Positions 1,385 through 60,819 of a stretch of 64,000 nucleotides of DNA are shown here, one piece after another (position 1 is the stretch's first letter; every line of letters begins with the position of its first letter). Source of the stretch: a phage; the sequence record OZ335963.1; one strand, given 5' to 3'. A model generated the notes under the pieces. The model ran no database searches. It saw nothing but the letters and a program-made list of their open reading frames with translations, and was not told the origin of the DNA. The translations under genes were made by a program, and so were the position numbers.

Positions 1385-1845
1385 AGAGAGTCTCTTAATA
1401 GGTTTAACACATCAATAAATTCAGCTTCGGTTAGTATTGTATCATCTTTTGTTAGACCACTAGCCATGCTGTGCTTCAAAACTTTTCCTTTCGAGGCTTG
1501 TAACGCATCACGAAAGCCCTTGTTTTGGAACGCTGCTTCAAAATATGCATTTGTGTATAATTCTTTCCACGCTGGAGAGTATCTTGAAAACGGAACTCCA
1601 AGCCAGAAGAGGGTCCCACGGTCCTGAGCTCTAGCATAAGACCTTCCGGCTTGTTGGGCGGCAAGCCCGGATAACCCAAATATACGACGTTGCTGTTCAA
1701 TATTTTTCACTTTACACCCTTGGAGGAATCCTTCGAGACCTCCAAATTGGATACCATCCATAACGAAAGGCCATTGGGCGAAATTGCTTAATGCGCATGA
1801 TGGCCATTTAAAATTGCTTCTTATCTCTAGCTCAGACATTTTCAA
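1381..1845 (-). CDS. YbiA/NADAR-like domain protein, 154 aa
   Basis: N-terminal LSNFAQWPFVMDGIQF resembles the FSNFAAWP..DG motif of E. coli YbiA (DUF1768/NADAR), from memory. Confidence 0.45.
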   Translation of the reverse strand: MKMSELEIRSNFKWPSCALSNFAQWPFVMDGIQFGGLEGFLQGCKVKNIEQQRRIFGLSGLAAQQAGRSYARAQDRGTLFWLGVPFSRYSPAWKELYTNAYFEAAFQNKGFRDALQASKGKVLKHSMASGLTKDDTILTEAEFIDVLNLLRDSL

Positions 1846-2038
1846 TACTTATAATTTCAACATCAGCCCAATGACCATAGCAAGGAAGACGAAATTCAAC
1901 TGGCCAGTTAGGGTCCTTTTCTAATATAATAGACTCAACTTGTGGTTCTTCATGTTCATCAGTATATGGATTTTTATCTGTTACTTTATATGTGACCTTA
2001 ATGTACTGAATTCCAAAAATCTTATTAATTATATTCAT
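1832..2038 (-). CDS. hypothetical protein, 68 aa
   Basis: ORF in co-oriented gene string. Confidence 0.4.
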   Translation of the reverse strand: MNIINKIFGIQYIKVTYKVTDKNPYTDEHEEPQVESIILEKDPNWPVEFRLPCYGHWADVEIISIENV

Positions 2039-2232
2039 ACTAATTCCTTTAATCCGTAAATAGGAGATAATTCATCGCCCATACGAAGGTCTTCATTTCC
2101 ATCTACCCAAGAAACAATATAAGCCTCTTTTATTTGAATACCACTCCATTTAAATGGAGGTAGAACCTTAGAAATTAATCCAGGTATACCAACTCCCTTT
2201 AATTCAACAGTTTGACCTAAAAAGAATTTCAT
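2035..2232 (-). CDS. hypothetical protein, 65 aa
   Basis: ORF in co-oriented gene string with overlapping stop/start. Confidence 0.4.
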   Translation of the reverse strand: MKFFLGQTVELKGVGIPGLISKVLPPFKWSGIQIKEAYIVSWVDGNEDLRMGDELSPIYGLKELV

Positions 2233-2519
2233 TAGAACCTCATCTGAAAACCGTGCGATTTAACATTACCGCCGCCAATATCAGAAATGTTAATTTCACG
2301 CGCAATTGAAGGGTCAATGTCAATTTCACGATTGAATTTAGTGATAGCTAAAGTATCGCGCCCATTTACAGTACGGAATTCTAAAGGACATACTACATTA
2401 ACGTAGTTTTTAATCGATTCGCTAGTAGGTTGCAAATGAGCAGGAAGGTCTTTAGGCGCCTTAGAGAAAACTACTTCGCAGAAGTTTTTACGAGTATCAA
2501 AATAAGTAGTCATAAACAT
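2232..2519 (-). CDS. hypothetical protein, 95 aa
   Basis: ORF in co-oriented gene string. Confidence 0.45.
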   Translation of the reverse strand: MFMTTYFDTRKNFCEVVFSKAPKDLPAHLQPTSESIKNYVNVVCPLEFRTVNGRDTLAITKFNREIDIDPSIAREINISDIGGGNVKSHGFQMRF

Positions 2520-2560
2520 AGTATTTTCCTCAGTAAGGGGCCGAAGCCCCTTATTTTATT

Positions 2561-2926
2561 TTAAATATCAAATTCGTTAAGAACTACATCAAAGATTGCT
2601 TCAAGATGCTCAGGTTTAGCTCTGTTACTCAGAATATGACGAATCCAAGTTTTAACCAGAAGTTTACGATTAACACCATTCCAGCAAGGATGAGTCCCTA
2701 AATCGCGTTGGCGAAAATCATCATCCAGAGCGATTTTAAAAGAAGAACCTTCTTTCGTGATTGAAACCGTGATGCCATTTTCAAATCGCATATAAACGTA
2801 GTTAGGAGTCATATACTGTTCAATTTCGCATACTGATCCATTTTGATGTTTCCAAAGGCAGATAGTATCAATAGAACCTGCAATACCGTTAGAAACATAT
2901 TTACGTTCAAAGTTGATGTAGTTCAT
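2561..2926 (-). CDS. hypothetical protein, 121 aa
   Basis: ORF in co-oriented gene string. Confidence 0.5.
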   Translation of the reverse strand: MNYINFERKYVSNGIAGSIDTICLWKHQNGSVCEIEQYMTPNYVYMRFENGITVSITKEGSSFKIALDDDFRQRDLGTHPCWNGVNRKLLVKTWIRHILSNRAKPEHLEAIFDVVLNEFDI

Positions 2927-2994
2927 TTTTATTCTCCGAGATGTTTAATTGCGGTACAGGTATATAATATCATATCCTGTACCAAAGTAAACAA

Positions 2995-3327
2995 TTATTT
3001 TACTACTTTCCAATGTTGCATGTCAAGTTTACCAACTTTTTTCATCTTCTCAATTAAGCGTTCGGCACGTTGGCGAGCTGTAACATAATACCATTCACCT
3101 AATTCATTTTGTTCAATTTTTCCAACGATTACTGTATTCAATTCATAAATCCAACCAGTAAAGAAATTATGAACTTGAATTGCAAAGGTGAAATCTGTTC
3201 CCATACCTTCTGTTGTTTCTACTTCAATAATATCACCTTCAACTGCCATTAAGAACCACATAGTTTCATCATATTTACCGTTGAAGCATTTAGTTTTAAC
3301 TGTAGCGTTCAGATTAATCGTTTTCAT
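2995..3327 (-). CDS. hypothetical protein, 110 aa
   Basis: ORF in co-oriented gene string. Confidence 0.5.
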   Translation of the reverse strand: MKTINLNATVKTKCFNGKYDETMWFLMAVEGDIIEVETTEGMGTDFTFAIQVHNFFTGWIYELNTVIVGKIEQNELGEWYYVTARQRAERLIEKMKKVGKLDMQHWKVVK

Positions 3328-3413
3328 TTTATTCTCCTTTGTTTGTGTAAGATAATACTATCACAAAGGAACCATACTGTAAACAACTTTGTGCAATCTT
3401 TGAAAAATAAAAA

Positions 3414-3431
3414 AGGACTCCCGAAGGAGTC
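3414..3431 (-). terminator. GGACUCC-UUCG-GGAGUCC hairpin followed by U-run on the minus-sense RNA
   Basis: Perfect 7-bp stem with UUCG tetraloop on the transcribed strand; plus-strand A-run immediately 5' (U-run after the hairpin in the mRNA). Confidence 0.55.
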
Positions 3432-3437
3432 CTCAAC

Positions 3438-3614
3438 TTATGCTTTCTGCTTACCAAAACGAGAAGCATCATCTCGAAGAACCGCACGTGCTCGGCGCAT
3501 GATCTTCTCAACAGTTTGATTGATACGAGAGTTCGACCCACGCTTGTAACCAGCGCGTTTAGAATCACCAACTTTCTTTTCAACTGCTTTCTTTGCTTTA
3601 GCTTGTTTTGCCAT
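3438..3614 (-). CDS. small basic protein, 58 aa (MAKQAKAKK...; 30.9-like)
   Basis: ATG at 3614 preceded by AAAGAG; the listed 72-aa ORF probably starts at this internal Met. Confidence 0.45.
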   Translation of the reverse strand: MAKQAKAKKAVEKKVGDSKRAGYKRGSNSRINQTVEKIMRRARAVLRDDASRFGKQKA

Positions 3615-4011
3615 TATAAATTCTCTTTTAAATGAAAATGCAGGACTTATTGGCATTGCCTGCGAAAGCCCTCAAGGGGTACTTAGGTTTTGAATATTTA
3701 CCGACAGGATAACCATAAACCTCGTCAACATACCTTATAGCTCTTATCTGTTGCACACCGTTAGCTTAAAGGTTCCGGGTTCGATTTCTCGAGGATAAGA
3801 TATATACTGATGGATATATAGGCCTTGAGGCGTACTCCCGATTGGCCATCACCTCGGGGTAGCATGCACTTGCCGCTATAAGAATAACATTCAAGAGGTA
3901 CACCGTAAAACTGCCGGGGTCTTAAAACTATAATGATTCGCAAATCATTAATCAGACAGTTCGACGGCTCCTCGATTTTAGCTCACACTAAGGCAGTGAA
4001 TCTCCAATAAA

Positions 4012-4260
4012 TTACTTCAGTGTTACCACAAAGTGACGAACTGCTTTTCGTGCGGCAGAAGCCAGAGGCTTAGCATATTTAAGTTCATCTTTTTCCTGAA
4101 GCTCAACAGCTAATGCAGTTTGAGCAGGATTCAGATGTTTGAAATAACGCAGGATTTCAAGAGCTTCGGCTTCAACATCAATAGATGCGCCATAGTTTTC
4201 GTGACCATTATTCCATGCGTTTCGTTGCAGTTCAAGAGCGTGTTGTAATTGTTTAATCAT
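4012..4260 (-). CDS. rIII: rIII-like lysis-inhibition accessory protein, 82 aa
   Basis: 82-aa ORF immediately downstream of gene 31, as in T4; the name rests on size and position only. Confidence 0.55.
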   Translation of the reverse strand: MIKQLQHALELQRNAWNNGHENYGASIDVEAEALEILRYFKHLNPAQTALAVELQEKDELKYAKPLASAARKAVRHFVVTLK

Positions 4261-4399
4261 TTAAAAATTCTCGTTAGAGATTAAAACTCGGTAGTCACGT
4301 TCTTCTGAATTTCATCTTCTTTCGACAGATCTCTCAGTTGTAGACTACCACATAGAATTGTTCGGTTAACTTATTATTCCGACACCCAATTCATATTAT

Positions 4400-4407
4400 T
4401 ATTTATA
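4400..4407 (-). promoter_or_regulatory. T4-type late promoter core TATAAATA (minus sense)
   Basis: Exact TATAAATA on the transcribed strand between gene 31 stop and rIII start. Confidence 0.4.
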
Positions 4408-4743
4408 TCACTTATAAAGACACGGAATAGCTTTATAGTGACAGGTAACAAATTTTTGTTTAATTTCTTTTGGCTGCTTAAGACCCAGAGCTACAAAAGG
4501 ATGCGGAACGTTTCGAATTTGACCAACTGGAAGAGAAGTCAAATCACCAACTTCACAGAAACCTTCAGGAACATCAGGACCAACAGAGTGAATTACACAC
4601 AGTTCAGGAACTTCACCTTGAACACGTTTACCGATAATAAGTCCTGATTCTGTAACTTCTTCATCACCGGCTTGTGCAGGTTCAGAAACTAAAATAACAT
4701 ATTCACCGACAGCACGAATTGGTAGCTGTTGTACTTCAGACAT
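4408..4743 (-). CDS. 31: co-chaperonin gp31 (GroES-like), 111 aa
   Basis: [45 protein letters not shown]... matches T4 gp31 from memory. Confidence 0.9.
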
Positions 4744-4799
4744 CATTTTTCCTTTTTGTTAACAGATGAATTAATAATAACAAATAATTCTTAAAGCAT

Positions 4800-5108
4800 T
4801 TATTTACCAATAAATTGGAGCAAATGCTCAACTTTCATACCATTAACGGAAATCAATTTGTCAATAGAAAAACCTCGCCATGCACCAAGCTCAACATCAA
4901 ATACTGGAACCATATCAGTAGATTCTTTCCGAGTAGATTCAGTCAATTTACCAGTTTGCATGGTTGGCATAAAGTCAGCATCACGAGTACCTTTCATAGT
5001 ACGAATAGTGCCATCAGACTTTTCAAAAACTACATTTGAAATACCCATGGACAATTTAGTTTTCAAAATTTCGCGAATTGCTACTTTTTGTTCAGTCGTC
5101 AGTTTCAT
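4800..5108 (-). CDS. hypothetical protein, 102 aa (31.1 position)
   Basis: ORF between gene 31 and cd. Confidence 0.5.
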   Translation of the reverse strand: MKLTTEQKVAIREILKTKLSMGISNVVFEKSDGTIRTMKGTRDADFMPTMQTGKLTESTRKESTDMVPVFDVELGAWRGFSIDKLISVNGMKVEHLLQFIGK

Positions 5109-5345
5109 TTATTTACCTATTACAGTTTTAATATGAGTTGTTCCACGTTCTTTAAGAGTGGAAAGCAACTTTTGGCATTTTTCTAAATCAGATTTCCAAC
5201 TATACGGTCTATCAATACTAGTCCAGTCAGTTTTATAATACTGTTTCCATTTAGAGAAAAAATATTTCTTATACTCTACAGCAAATGAAATGTTCTCGTT
5301 AGAATAAGAACTAATTGCTGTGAGTTGTACCAAACGAAATTTCAT
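5109..5345 (-). CDS. hypothetical protein, 78 aa (31.2 position)
   Basis: ORF between gene 31 and cd. Confidence 0.45.
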   Translation of the reverse strand: MKFRLVQLTAISSYSNENISFAVEYKKYFFSKWKQYYKTDWTSIDRPYSWKSDLEKCQKLLSTLKERGTTHIKTVIGK

Positions 5346-55643: not shown

Positions 55644-56561
55644 TTATTTTGCCCAGGGAGCCCAGGGCGGAGGGTCAAGATGGTATGAAGCTAGTTCTTC
55701 TAGAAGAGCATCTGGGGCTTCAATTCCATAATTCTGTAATACTATACGGTACTCTTTCTTATAATCACTAGAATCATTCTGGATATTCGTAGAATGATTA
55801 TCTTCTAACATCTCAAATAAATCCATATTAATTCCTAGCGATAAAAAACCAAAATAACGATTAGCTTCAATAATCTTTCTTTCTTCTTCAGACATTCTCC
55901 AGCGTAGTCCAACATCAAAATGAGCCCAGACCATCTTAACAAATGCATTTATATCTTTAATATCTTCAATAATGAATGATTTACTTTTAGAAGGTTGACT
56001 CGCTAATTTAACTTTATCGTCTTCAAACAGGTCAAAAAGACCATATTCATGATTATCTTCTAACATCTCAAATAAATCCATATTAATTCCTAGCGATAAA
56101 AAACCAAAATAACGATTAGCTTCAATAATCTTTCTTTCTTCTTCAGACATTCTCCAGCGTAGTCCAACATCAAAATGAGCCCAGACCATCTTAACAAATG
56201 CATTTATATCTTTAATATCTTCAATAATGAATGATTTACTTTTAGAAGGTTGACTCGCTAATTTAACTTTATCGTCTTCAAACAGGTCAAAAAGACCATA
56301 TTCATGGGCTCTTTTATAGCCTTTAATAGTTAAAGCTTCAGAAGAAGAAAAAGGTGAATCAGTATTCTGCAAAATATCTTCAGTATGCTTTATAATTAGA
56401 ATAACATTTTCTGGATATTTTCTTTCTTTTATATCTTTAATTAAAAGATCCGGATTTTCTGCTAAAGGAATAATTAATGAGCACTTTTTATCAAGTGTAT
56501 TTACCGATTTACCTTCTTTGGACATAAATTCTATTGAATAATGTTTTGCTACTTCAATCAT
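55644..56561 (-). CDS. hypothetical protein, 305 aa, containing an exact 85-aa tandem duplication
   Basis: Residues [24 protein letters not shown]...FEMLEDNH occur twice in a row, encoded by a perfect 255-bp direct repeat. Confidence 0.6.
55794..56306. repeat. perfect tandem direct repeat, 2 x 255 bp
   Basis: 55794-56048 is identical to 56049-56303 (plus 3 nt into a third period); in-frame within the 305-aa ORF. Confidence 0.9.
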
Positions 56562-58034: not shown

Positions 58035-58280
58035 TTAACCACCAGTTACTTTCCACAAATCTTCATTTGCAGTAATCCATTCAGTACGTTGATTTTCTTC
58101 ATATACTGTAGTATATGCTGCTTTTTCTGAAGGGAATATCTGATAATGAGCGCCAGAAATTTTGTGAACGTCAGAATAAAGAGGGAAAGCTACAGAAATT
58201 TCTTTTCCTTCAATTTTCTTATTTCCATCTAATTTCTGCTCAAATGTTTTAATATTAACATAACCGCGAGTACTAGCCAT
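58035..58280 (-). CDS. soc: small outer capsid protein Soc, 81 aa
   Basis: MASTRGYVNIKTFEQKLDGNKKIEGKEISVAFPLYSDVHKISGAHYQIFP... matches T4 Soc. Confidence 0.9.
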   Translation of the reverse strand: MASTRGYVNIKTFEQKLDGNKKIEGKEISVAFPLYSDVHKISGAHYQIFPSEKAAYTTVYEENQRTEWITANEDLWKVTGG

Positions 58281-58352: not shown

Positions 58353-58871
58353 TTAATAACCTCGGTCTTGACGAGCGAAGTTTTCGGCATTTTTTAGATA
58401 ATAAAGTTTAAAGATTTCTTCAGCCGTAAGACCGAGACCTTGGAACATGTTCAGAACGAAATGAAGAATATCAATCATTTCGAATTTAATTTCCAACTGG
58501 TCTTGCGGAGACAAATCAGTAATTAGAGTTTCACGGCGTTCACCGTGTTGAGCTTTCCAAGGCTTCCATACAGCGGATGCATCTTTTTCACCATTGCTCA
58601 TACCACCAAGAGAAGTCAGAAGTTCGCGGAATTCATCATCAATATAATCTTTCTGATTACGCAACCAATCAACAACTTCGCCTGCGGTAGCCAAATCATC
58701 AGGATGACGGTTATATTCAGGTTTATCTTTAGCTAAACGAACCTGCAGAGATTTCTGCATATCAAGCATAACCTGCAGCGGGTCTTTTTCATCACCGAGA
58801 ATATCCCAGTATTCATTTTGAGCTTTATCAGCGCCTTCAATCAGTTGACTACATTCGTTGAAATGTGGCAT
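58353..58871 (-). CDS. 56: dCTPase/dUTPase gp56 (MazG-like), 172 aa
   Basis: MazG-type NTP pyrophosphatase-like protein of T4 gp56 size, directly upstream of soc; remembered match. Confidence 0.85.
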   Translation of the reverse strand: MPHFNECSQLIEGADKAQNEYWDILGDEKDPLQVMLDMQKSLQVRLAKDKPEYNRHPDDLATAGEVVDWLRNQKDYIDDEFRELLTSLGGMSNGEKDASAVWKPWKAQHGERRETLITDLSPQDQLEIKFEMIDILHFVLNMFQGLGLTAEEIFKLYYLKNAENFARQDRGY

Positions 58872-58872
58872 G

Positions 58873-59523
58873 TTATTTTTCCTTTCTTATGAAGTTTTCT
58901 ATCATATGTCTATAGCAGATATTAGGATAACCTGCCTTGACAGCTATTTTATTAAATTTTGTGCGCTTAGGTCTATTATTATAAACCCATAATTCATAAA
59001 GCGCATCATAACTATTCCATATTTCTCCTCGCCTAGGATTTGGTAAACCATATCGAGGCGAATTTTTACCGCTAAATCTTCCTTTTCGGGCTTTACTCAT
59101 ATTAGCCTTGGCTTCATCGGATATAATTTTACCTTTATGAGCTAGACGCATTTTGGCTTTAGTTTCTTCTGGAGTCTTTTTGCCTTTAATCCATGACGGC
59201 TTGCCATATCTAGGATTATTTTCACCCGAGAAAAGAACAGAGTTTTGGATTTTAAGGGTTTCTATTAATCTACTTGTTAATTTAACACCTTTATTATATC
59301 GCATTAAATTTACAGCATAATGCAATCCTCTCACATCTGGATATATTTTAGTTAATAATCTATGAGCTATAAAATGCTCACGCGCAGTTAACTCAACAAG
59401 ATTGTTTTTGCCATCTGCTCCTCCCATACATCTAGGAATTATATGATGGCGTTCTTTATATCCGCCAAGATGCCGGCATTTAGCTTTTGTAATTAAAGCC
59501 GAGTAAATTTTTTGGTAATTCAC
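58873..59523 (-). CDS. free-standing HNH homing endonuclease with NUMOD3-like repeats, 216 aa
   Basis: HNH motif ERHHIIPRCMGGADGKNNLVELTAREHFIAH; C-terminal ENNPRYGKP / KNSPRYGLP repeats; only in-frame start is GTG at 59523 with AAAGGA SD. Confidence 0.75.
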   Translation of the reverse strand: MNYQKIYSALITKAKCRHLGGYKERHHIIPRCMGGADGKNNLVELTAREHFIAHRLLTKIYPDVRGLHYAVNLMRYNKGVKLTSRLIETLKIQNSVLFSGENNPRYGKPSWIKGKKTPEETKAKMRLAHKGKIISDEAKANMSKARKGRFSGKNSPRYGLPNPRRGEIWNSYDALYELWVYNNRPKRTKFNKIAVKAGYPNICYRHMIENFIRKEK

Positions 59524-59546
59524 ATATATCCTTTCAATTCATGGGT

Positions 59547-59580
59547 TAGTAGATTAATTATACAATAAATATATAAAGCA
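59547..59580 (-). promoter_or_regulatory. MotA-dependent middle promoter (TGCTTTA box, 11 nt, TATAAT)
   Basis: Minus sense TGCTTTA-tatatttattg-TATAAT upstream of the HNH ORF. Confidence 0.45.
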
Positions 59581-59593
59581 ATAAGGAGGATAT

Positions 59594-59794
59594 ATGGTAC
59601 AAAAATTAATGGCACTTGTAGATGCCATAAAAGGTAATAAAAGACGTATAGCTTTTACTATTTCTGCTATGGTAGGAATTTTACTTTGGAATTTTGTTTT
59701 ATCGCCAGTTGCTATTGCTCATGGTGTTAGTATTCCAGTAATTACTCTCGATACATTCGTAGATTTAGCATTTGCTTTAGTTGGGTTAATTTAA
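59594..59794 (+). CDS. small two-helix membrane protein, 66 aa, on the opposite strand
   Basis: Strong SD AAGGAGG 4 nt before ATG; two hydrophobic segments; T4-like codon usage; stop overlaps gene 61 stop. Confidence 0.4.
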   Translation: MVQKLMALVDAIKGNKRRIAFTISAMVGILLWNFVLSPVAIAHGVSIPVITLDTFVDLAFALVGLI

Positions 59795-60819
59795 ATCTTA
59801 GCATATTTAGATAGCCGCATTTTGGCCATCAACCCTTGGGCAATATTATTTTTCATATATTCCATAATTTGTTCAGGGGTTGCACCTTCCTTTCTAATCA
59901 TATCATTAACATCTTTTGATTTCCAGGGAGATTTGTCCCAAAACATAACCCTTTCTCCTGCATCAACCAATTTAGTCATTCGTTTAATAGTATCAGGGTG
60001 ACGAGGTTCATTATCTAAAACCCATACACGTCTATCTTTAAATGGAACAATTTCTAGGTCTAATTGACCACCCGTAATAGCTATACCATTTTCAATAAAA
60101 AGTGAATCTATAGGTCCTTCTAGAACATATACATCACCATCTTTGACCCGTTCAACGCCATAGATTTTTGTTGCCTCAGGATAAGCTTTGATGGTGATAT
60201 ATTTTTGGGGAGCATCTTTCTTTAATGCACGTCCTTGAAAAGACTCAGCTTTTCCGTTAGCATTATAAATTGGAATAACAAGACGAGGCTCAGGTATTTC
60301 CTTTTTATATGTTCCTGGCGCTATACTATTAACTAATTTAGGCCATTCGGTTGTAAACCAAAGATATTTCCATTTATCCTTTGGAATACAACGGGCTTTT
60401 ACATATTTTATAATTGGATGGTCTTCCGCCAGTTTATCTAATCTAATGCATGACGGAAGAGATTTAATTATTTTTTTCTCAGGTTGTTTAGGAAGTTCTT
60501 TAGGTTTTTCTACTGGACGACTTTTACCTTTTTCTTTTCTTATTTCAAAGATATACTCACGATATAAATCGGGTTCAAACTCCTTTAAATATATTCTGAT
60601 TGGTGCATGATAGTTACAGTTATAACAATGAATATTTCCTTCATTATTATCGCCATAATACCATCCACGAGCTTTATTTTGGTCGGTTTTTGAATCTCCA
60701 CAAACAGGGCATCTAAACCGCAATTTAAAAGTTGAACTATTATTTACTTGTGCGAATTTAGGTAAATGAGCCAATGCACGGTATGCAAACTCATTATCAA
60801 TCCAAGGTATTGATGACAT
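59791..60819 (-). CDS. 61: DNA primase gp61, 342 aa
   Basis: N-terminal zinc-binding CPVCGDS...HCYNC and TOPRIM-type core; length matches T4 gp61. Confidence 0.95.
   Translation of the reverse strand: MSSIPWIDNEFAYRALAHLPKFAQVNNSSTFKLRFRCPVCGDSKTDQNKARGWYYGDNNEGNIHCYNCNYHAPIRIYLKEFEPDLYREYIFEIRKEKGKSRPVEKPKELPKQPEKKIIKSLPSCIRLDKLAEDHPIIKYVKARCIPKDKWKYLWFTTEWPKLVNSIAPGTYKKEIPEPRLVIPIYNANGKAESFQGRALKKDAPQKYITIKAYPEATKIYGVERVKDGDVYVLEGPIDSLFIENGIAITGGQLDLEIVPFKDRRVWVLDNEPRHPDTIKRMTKLVDAGERVMFWDKSPWKSKDVNDMIRKEGATPEQIMEYMKNNIAQGLMAKMRLSKYAKI

Follow-up and report, generated by a model that had tools for sequence, protein, structure and literature searches.

The free-standing homing endonuclease genes of phage T4 typically come as cassettes without a promoter and are expressed from promoters upstream (PMC2988022). 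One of them, mobE, lies between nrdA and nrdB; it is mobile and has no promoter, and the HNH endonuclease that it encodes nicks nrdB of phage T2 and spreads by gene conversion of the DSB-repair type (Wilson & Edgell 2009, PMC2790892). SegF, a GIY-YIG enzyme encoded between gene 56 and soc, targets gene 56 of T2 and produces localized marker exclusion, as Belle et al. (2002) are cited in PMC2988022 and PMC2993671. A list of the 15 homing endonucleases of T4 from 2010 has none at the site between genes 56 and 61 described below, and the same source predicts a GUG start for mobA, a precedent for initiation at GTG (PMC2988022). A different precedent comes from Neisseria, where strains without Dam carry an endonuclease gene at the dam locus, the "dam replacing gene" drg (PMC4269198), as in the idea that an endonuclease can replace dam. 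Here we analyzed a stretch of phage DNA of 64,000 nucleotides (sequence record OZ335963.1; hereafter, the window) that has a candidate homing endonuclease gene beside gene 56.

The candidate gene occupies positions 58873-59523 on the minus strand and encodes 216 aa, from a GTG start to a TAA stop that lies 1 nt ahead of the gene 56 ATG. The downstream cistron, gene 56 (58353-58871, minus strand; dCTPase/dUTPase, matched by dUTPase_2 and PHROG 173), carries the start allele MPHFNEC and is followed after 72 nt by soc (58035-58280, minus strand; Pfam Soc, 3.9e-53). On the other side lies gene 61, encoding DNA primase (59791-60819, minus strand; PHROG 47, 5e-106). The initial annotation of the window had described a GTG-initiated HNH nuclease of 216 aa with NUMOD3 repeats between genes 56 and 61, and the ORF list, a NUMOD3 match and the invariant HNH residues all agree with that description. 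The sole ATG nearby is out of frame with respect to the ORF and is directly followed by TGA. The GTG start is common to five Tequatrovirus copies and a Jiaodavirus copy of the gene; in phage VR5 the corresponding codon is ATG. The T4 gene order on which the initial annotation drew (soc, segF, 56, dam, 61) is that of the NC_000866 record. The initial annotation had also noted that soc sits directly beside gene 56 without segF and that the window shows no DPPY-type methyltransferase ORF; tblastn searches of the whole 64-kb window with T4 SegF and with T4 Dam (E ≤ 10) accordingly returned no match for either protein.

Protein searches placed the ORF among the HNH/Mob families, as had been expected, with matches to PHROG 655, NUMOD3 and MobE-type proteins. 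The PHROG 655 family ("homing endonuclease") matched at 3.7e-59 and an "HNH endonuclease" PHROG at 1.8e-12. Pfam NUMOD3 (PF07460) matched in two stretches at 29.4 bits against a cutoff of 20.4 (7.4e-7), and Pfam HNH (PF01844) remained below its gathering cutoff (14.7 vs 21.4 bits, E = 0.036). Residues H26, H27, N41, H50 and H54 are invariant in an alignment of 48 sequences with 38-93% identity to the query; the HNH profile reaches E ≤ 0.01 in 30 of these homologs (best 2.3e-4) and NUMOD3 is found in 44. More than 3000 homologs are present in a large protein collection, and nearly all of them carry the NUMOD3 flag. A PDB sequence search gave nothing significant (best E = 0.15, unrelated), and NCBIfam gave just one sub-threshold match, to an IscB HNH-region model. 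The AlphaFold2 (AF2) model has a mean pLDDT of 84.5, with a core of strands 24-27 and 42-45 and helix 47-60 at pLDDT ≥94, and this predicted strand-strand-helix order would fit the beta-beta-alpha pattern. Beyond the core, the model continues with helical NUMOD3 segments and ends in a three-helix bundle, probably a DNA-binding module. Among the T4 paralogs, MobE is closest, with 43.9-46.2% identity over the N-terminal ~170 aa (E down to 1e-28 in tblastn against mobE-annotated genes). The gene in the MobE position of phage Killian is 45% identical (E = 1.4e-30), and MobD is more distant (34%).

We compared the junctions of the ORF in the window with those in Killian, ELT1, T4, EC121, IME537 and 45 further loci. 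These alignments show that the gene is a precisely bounded insert of ~650 bp within the gene 56 leader. The empty site reads ...CATGAATT-GAAAGGA-AAAATA-ATG(56), and the occupied site reads ...CATGAATT-GAAAGGA-TATAT-GTG...HNH...ATAA-GAAAGGA-AAAATAAC-ATG(56). Thus, the two copies of GAAAGGA form a 7-bp direct repeat that brackets the insert. The upstream copy (59529-59535, minus strand) is the Shine-Dalgarno sequence (SD) of the HNH GTG, with a 5-nt spacer, and the downstream copy (58880-58886, minus strand) lies inside the last HNH codons (RKEK*) and is the SD of gene 56. The final HNH codons (RKEK) and the TAA stop are native gene 56 leader sequence, and because GAAAGGA is duplicated at both insert ends, gene 56 retains its SD. 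A fold of the leader RNA (59470-59556, minus strand) revealed no hairpin that would sequester the ribosome-binding site (z = -0.1), so we dropped the idea of translational control in the style of MobE or I-TevI.

Three loci that lack the HNH gene (L010, L025 and L026) have the gene 56 start sequence expected from exact excision of the cassette via the GAAAGGA repeat (GAAAGGAAAAATAAC ATGCCACA...), within a stretch of ~60 nt around locus position 4001 (990 in L010). Such sequences either predate the insertion or are the footprint left when an endonuclease gene was lost. Changes in codons 2-3 of gene 56 (MPHF versus MAHF or MAYF) were considered as a mark of target-site immunity. They give no clean signature, since the same three HNH-less loci share MPHF and the HNH-positive phage VR5 keeps MAHF.

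In middle promoters that depend on MotA, a MotA box with the consensus (a/t)(a/t)(a/t)TGCTT(t/c)A is followed after 11-13 bp by a TAnnnT -10 element. Alignments and the annotation of the T4 record point to a site of this type, TGCTTTA-N11-TATAAT, at 59557-59580 on the minus strand, upstream of the HNH gene; given as TTATTGCTTTA-N11-TATAAT, it matches the consensus. This site is the one that the initial annotation had described as a MotA-box middle promoter ahead of the endonuclease. Within the window we counted 8 sites of this motif class where 2.3 are expected, and none of 100 shuffles attained 8. In a sigma-70 scan, no promoter was called at the site, and hits were no more frequent than in shuffles. 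The site can be aligned with sequence upstream of gene 56 in T4, whose gene 56 transcript is tied to oriA in the T4 record, and HNH-less genomes have it too, equally far from gene 56. Since it is present in those genomes, the promoter was not imported by the HNH gene, and we regard it as the putative ancestral middle promoter of gene 56. A segment of ~45 bp around it is kept in all four configurations of HNH and dam described below. Its presence in HNH-less genomes suggests that the HNH cassette is promoterless and has captured the gene 56 middle promoter.

The interval between this promoter and gene 61 contains a conserved hydrophobic ORF of 66 aa on the plus strand (59594-59794; phrog_2024), which lies between the HNH gene and gene 61 and adjoins the site of the dam cassette. 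It has a strong SD (AAGGAGG), runs convergently with the primase gene and overlaps the gene 61 stop by 4 nt. The protein is 91% identical in T4, 44-51% in other genera and 30% in Jiaodavirus, and its T4 equivalent (positions 4239-4436 of our T4 locus, L003) is missing from the annotation of the T4 RefSeq record NC_000866.4. Between gene 61 and the gene 56 promoter, the minus strand matches the consensus of a terminator-like hairpin with a T-run behind it (59609-59628). This candidate hairpin lies opposite the beginning of the 66-aa ORF, in antisense orientation, and could shield the HNH-56 unit from read-through out of gene 61.

Based on these features, we assign the ORF to the free-standing homing endonuclease genes of the Mob class of T4, with MobE as its nearest characterized relative, carried as a cassette in the gene 56 leader; we assign this reading a probability of roughly 0.8. 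The protein would combine an N-terminal HNH (beta-beta-alpha-metal) nuclease domain with NUMOD3 linker repeats and the C-terminal three-helix module. As in the MobE system, an HNH domain is joined to a C-terminal region, here a probable DNA-binding one, the cassette appears to be promoterless and to rely on an upstream promoter, it sits just upstream of an essential gene of nucleotide metabolism, and its distribution among T-even relatives is patchy. The two differ in location, because mobE lies at the nrdA/nrdB site and the present cassette in the gene 56 leader, and in expression signals, with an AUG that overlaps the upstream stop in mobE and a separate SD and GTG here. In addition, the gene in the window comes first behind a putative middle promoter, and its product has a C-terminal half that cannot be aligned with MobE. 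SegF resembles the new gene in that both flank gene 56, although segF belongs to the GIY-YIG family, lies on the opposite side of gene 56 and is absent from the window. Gene 56 thus appears to draw homing endonucleases repeatedly, both as a place of insertion and as a target. The arrangement of nuclease domain, NUMOD linkers and helix-turn-helix is known from I-HmuI and I-TevI, but the HNH gene in the window is not intron-encoded: it is intergenic, is encoded in neither an intron nor an intein, and is present or absent at a fixed site among close relatives.

A presumed life cycle of the cassette can be outlined from these comparisons. The ~650-bp promoterless element would lie downstream of the pre-existing MotA-dependent promoter and upstream of the gene 56 start, so that the HNH gene would be transcribed as the first cistron of an HNH-56 message and would use its own SD and GTG for translation. 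By analogy with MobE and SegF, we infer that in mixed infections the enzyme would nick or cut an HNH-less relative's DNA at some point between genes 56 and 61, and that repair would then copy the cassette and flanking markers from the HNH-positive genome, resulting in localized marker exclusion. The gene 56 start region as the cleavage target is only a guess, because free-standing T4 endonucleases often cut hundreds of base pairs away (PMC2988022).

A protein at least 90% identical is present in about 56 phage records in GenBank, where it is annotated as a homing endonuclease. With queries spanning the junctions, we found the gene at the gene 56 locus in ~32 of ~424 Tequatrovirus-type records; it is absent from ~370 records whose flanks are otherwise 95-99% identical. 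These population counts rest on the GenBank phage collection because a scan of IMG/VR with the HNH protein gave 3 loci only. The soc and mrh.2 alleles differ among HNH-positive genomes within 1.5 kb, and thus these genomes are not a single clone. Matches also came from ~22 Klebsiella phage records, among them Jiaodavirus 15882-6-1, and the slot order 61, small ORF, HNH, 56 is common to three genera. The Jiaodavirus 15882-6-1 copy is 92.6% identical in amino acids and has the same GTG and SD; the copy in Dhakavirus VR5, annotated as "mobE", is 79% identical and starts with ATG. At the DNA level, the window and Jiaodavirus 15882-6-1 are 90.5% identical in the HNH gene, 75.0% in gene 56 and 64.9% in gene 61. 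A sliding comparison resolved a block at ~58845-59545 with 88-100% DNA identity between flanks of 45-75%. The block comprises ~27 nt from the start of gene 56 together with the HNH gene and the SD of the latter, its edges are sharp, and by this comparison it is a horizontally shared cassette. Because the cassette has moved between genera with such sharply defined ends, it should be a convenient natural system for mapping the target site of a Mob-type enzyme.

The gene is itself an internal mosaic, in which the HNH domain diverges differently from the NUMOD3 segment in the middle, depending on the lineage. In the NUMOD3 segment (59000-59200), synonymous sites are saturated relative to the Jiaodavirus and 235Ecol030PP copies and the HNH domain is nearly identical, whereas the pattern is reversed against the VR5 copy. 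This observation suggests that endonuclease alleles recombine at the level of domains. One IMG/VR locus (IMGVR_UViG_2974741249, ~1600-5300; L040 and L053) has an HNH copy that is 81% identical and can be aligned only from residue 17. There, the primase is split into several ORFs, gene 56 is represented by ORFs of 139 and 149 aa, and a second, distant HNH-like ORF lies ahead of soc. The locus could be a poor assembly or a truly rearranged, endonuclease-rich region.

Several other accounts of the gene have to be weighed against an active Mob-class cassette. It could be a stranded, defunct endonuclease that is no longer mobile and is inherited vertically, comparable to I-TevIII of T4. A GTG start could mean low expression, and the HNH-type gene 56 allele of the HNH-less loci would fit a cycle of gain and loss in which many copies are declining. 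However, the catalytic residues are invariant and each of the seven copies that we examined is intact; where the comparison is informative, dN/dS is 0.09-0.18, indicating that the gene is under purifying selection. Together with the patchy distribution among close relatives and the sharp-edged block of high identity across genera, set in far more divergent flanks, these data make a relic unlikely. The initial annotation had proposed a different history, a single event in which a mobile endonuclease replaced dam, so that the two genes would be alternative occupants of one site. The window itself and 29 records do have HNH without dam, and the complete genome of Killian, which shares the layout of the window, has no Dam homolog (best tblastn E = 1.4). 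In contrast to Neisseria drg, however, endonuclease and dam coexist in some phages, and their junctions differ. T4 has the layout 56, dam, 61 and EC121 simply 56, 61; the window, Killian and 235Ecol030PP have 56, HNH, 61; and ELT1 and IME537 have 56, HNH, dam, 61, with HNH proteins 98.6-99.1% identical to that of the window. ELT1 and IME537 contradict replacement, in the spirit of the refuting case named in the initial annotation, because they have the same HNH gene at this position and dam directly beside it. The HNH gene lies between the gene 56 SD and the promoter, and the dam indel lies beyond the other side of the promoter, ~60 bp away, so the two junctions are separated by the conserved promoter segment. 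The empty site of the dam cassette falls at 59581-59583 (no strand assigned), with the MotA box on one side and the AAGGAGG SD of the 66-aa ORF on the other, and dam-positive relatives carry 0.9-1.5 kb there. Moreover, the promoter haplotype tracks dam status rather than HNH status, and at least 190 records have neither gene. Mutual exclusivity at a single site is thus not what is found, and we consider replacement of dam by the endonuclease highly improbable. What stands of the earlier interpretation is a mobile HNH/NUMOD3 gene behind a MotA-type promoter in a region without dam and segF.

The two genes are nevertheless distributed unevenly. Junction queries gave 29 records with HNH and no dam, 3 with both, at least 190 with neither and ~180 with dam alone, the last being the remainder of the 183 dam-positive records. 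HNH is enriched on dam-less genomes (29/32 vs ~190/370; odds ratio 9.2, p = 9e-6), a skew on which the replacement proposal can also draw, although the records are non-independent and partly GenBank/RefSeq duplicates. Given this dependence among the records and the mere ~60 bp between the sites, we take this skew as linkage rather than replacement; linkage is the parsimonious account, possibly reinforced by co-conversion during homing. In a stronger form of the latter, homing of HNH into a dam-positive genome would usually copy the dam-less flank of the donor and thereby remove the restriction endonuclease (REase)-like and dam cassette. Co-conversion of flanking markers is established for free-standing T4 endonucleases (PMC2988022, PMC2790892), the 29:3 versus ~190:180 distribution and the closeness of the sites are as it would predict, and in the two genomes with both genes the crossover is no more than ~14 bp from the edge of the cassette. 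Linkage and common descent could suffice, however, given the duplicated and related records, and half of the HNH-less genomes likewise lack dam, so that HNH is not needed to explain its absence. We therefore regard regular removal of dam by co-conversion as a tentative idea, rather doubtful at present. The preferred reading remains a Mob-class cassette in the gene 56 leader, with the absence of dam as a separate and common polymorphism, which we attribute from the alignments to a dam-less allele at the neighboring accessory-cassette site.

Two product names in the Killian record could suggest that this phage has a methyltransferase after all. The 111-aa "DNA adenine methyltransferase" (L058:9427-9762) is a DUF7247 protein and the 70-aa "putative methyltransferase" (L056:22627-22839) is a DUF7202 protein, and neither has similarity to Dam. 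Many further product names in the Killian GenBank record look unreliable. Phages with the layout of the window are thus probably without a phage Dam, and they are expected to lack adenine methylation at GATC, which bears on DpnI/MboI typing and on host restriction. The same expectation holds for many relatives that lack both HNH and dam. The dam-less state is common, accounting for about half of the Tequatrovirus-type records, and is not specific to genomes with the endonuclease.

In 147 of the 183 dam-positive records, dam is preceded by an ORF of 186 aa (gp144 in IME537), of which T4 and ELT1 have only a 21-aa remnant. The 186-aa ORF has a sub-threshold match to Pfam DpnII (E = 0.0045) and an invariant D72...E85-x-K87 motif, and it is named "putative restriction endonuclease" in one GenBank record (Shinka). 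Judged by these alignments and profile matches, what the window lacks, in terms of most relatives, is a two-gene accessory cassette with a predicted REase-fold protein and Dam, rather than a core gene. The pair looks like the relic of a GATC restriction-modification system, with T4 left with dam and a 21-aa stub. It is conceivable, though we would not favor it, that two selfish modules, HNH on one hand and REase-fold plus Dam on the other, compete beside the gene 56/oriA promoter, and that homing of HNH strips the REase-like and dam cassette. If true, this competition would account for the 29:3 skew, and GATC methylation in T-even populations would change as a result.

The HNH gene is therefore an ordinary member of a well-known class, already annotated in the public records counted above, and our literature searches found no paper describing this element, experimental or otherwise. 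Its possible interplay with the neighboring REase-like and dam cassette is the remaining point of novelty. Together, the comparisons indicate that the T-even interval around genes 56 and 61 has at least three independent accessory slots, for a segF-type gene, for HNH and for the dam cassette.

Elsewhere in the window, positions 55794-56306 form a perfect (100% match), in-frame tandem duplication of 255 bp inside the ORF at 55644-56561 (minus strand). A query spanning the duplication junction was broken into two pieces in the best 8 of 502 matching records, where a contiguous match would rank first, so that the duplication must have arisen very recently or else reflect an assembly artefact. It yields an ORF of 305 aa in which a part matching phrog_1234 (Mrh/ModA.3-like) is joined to a part matching phrog_1647.
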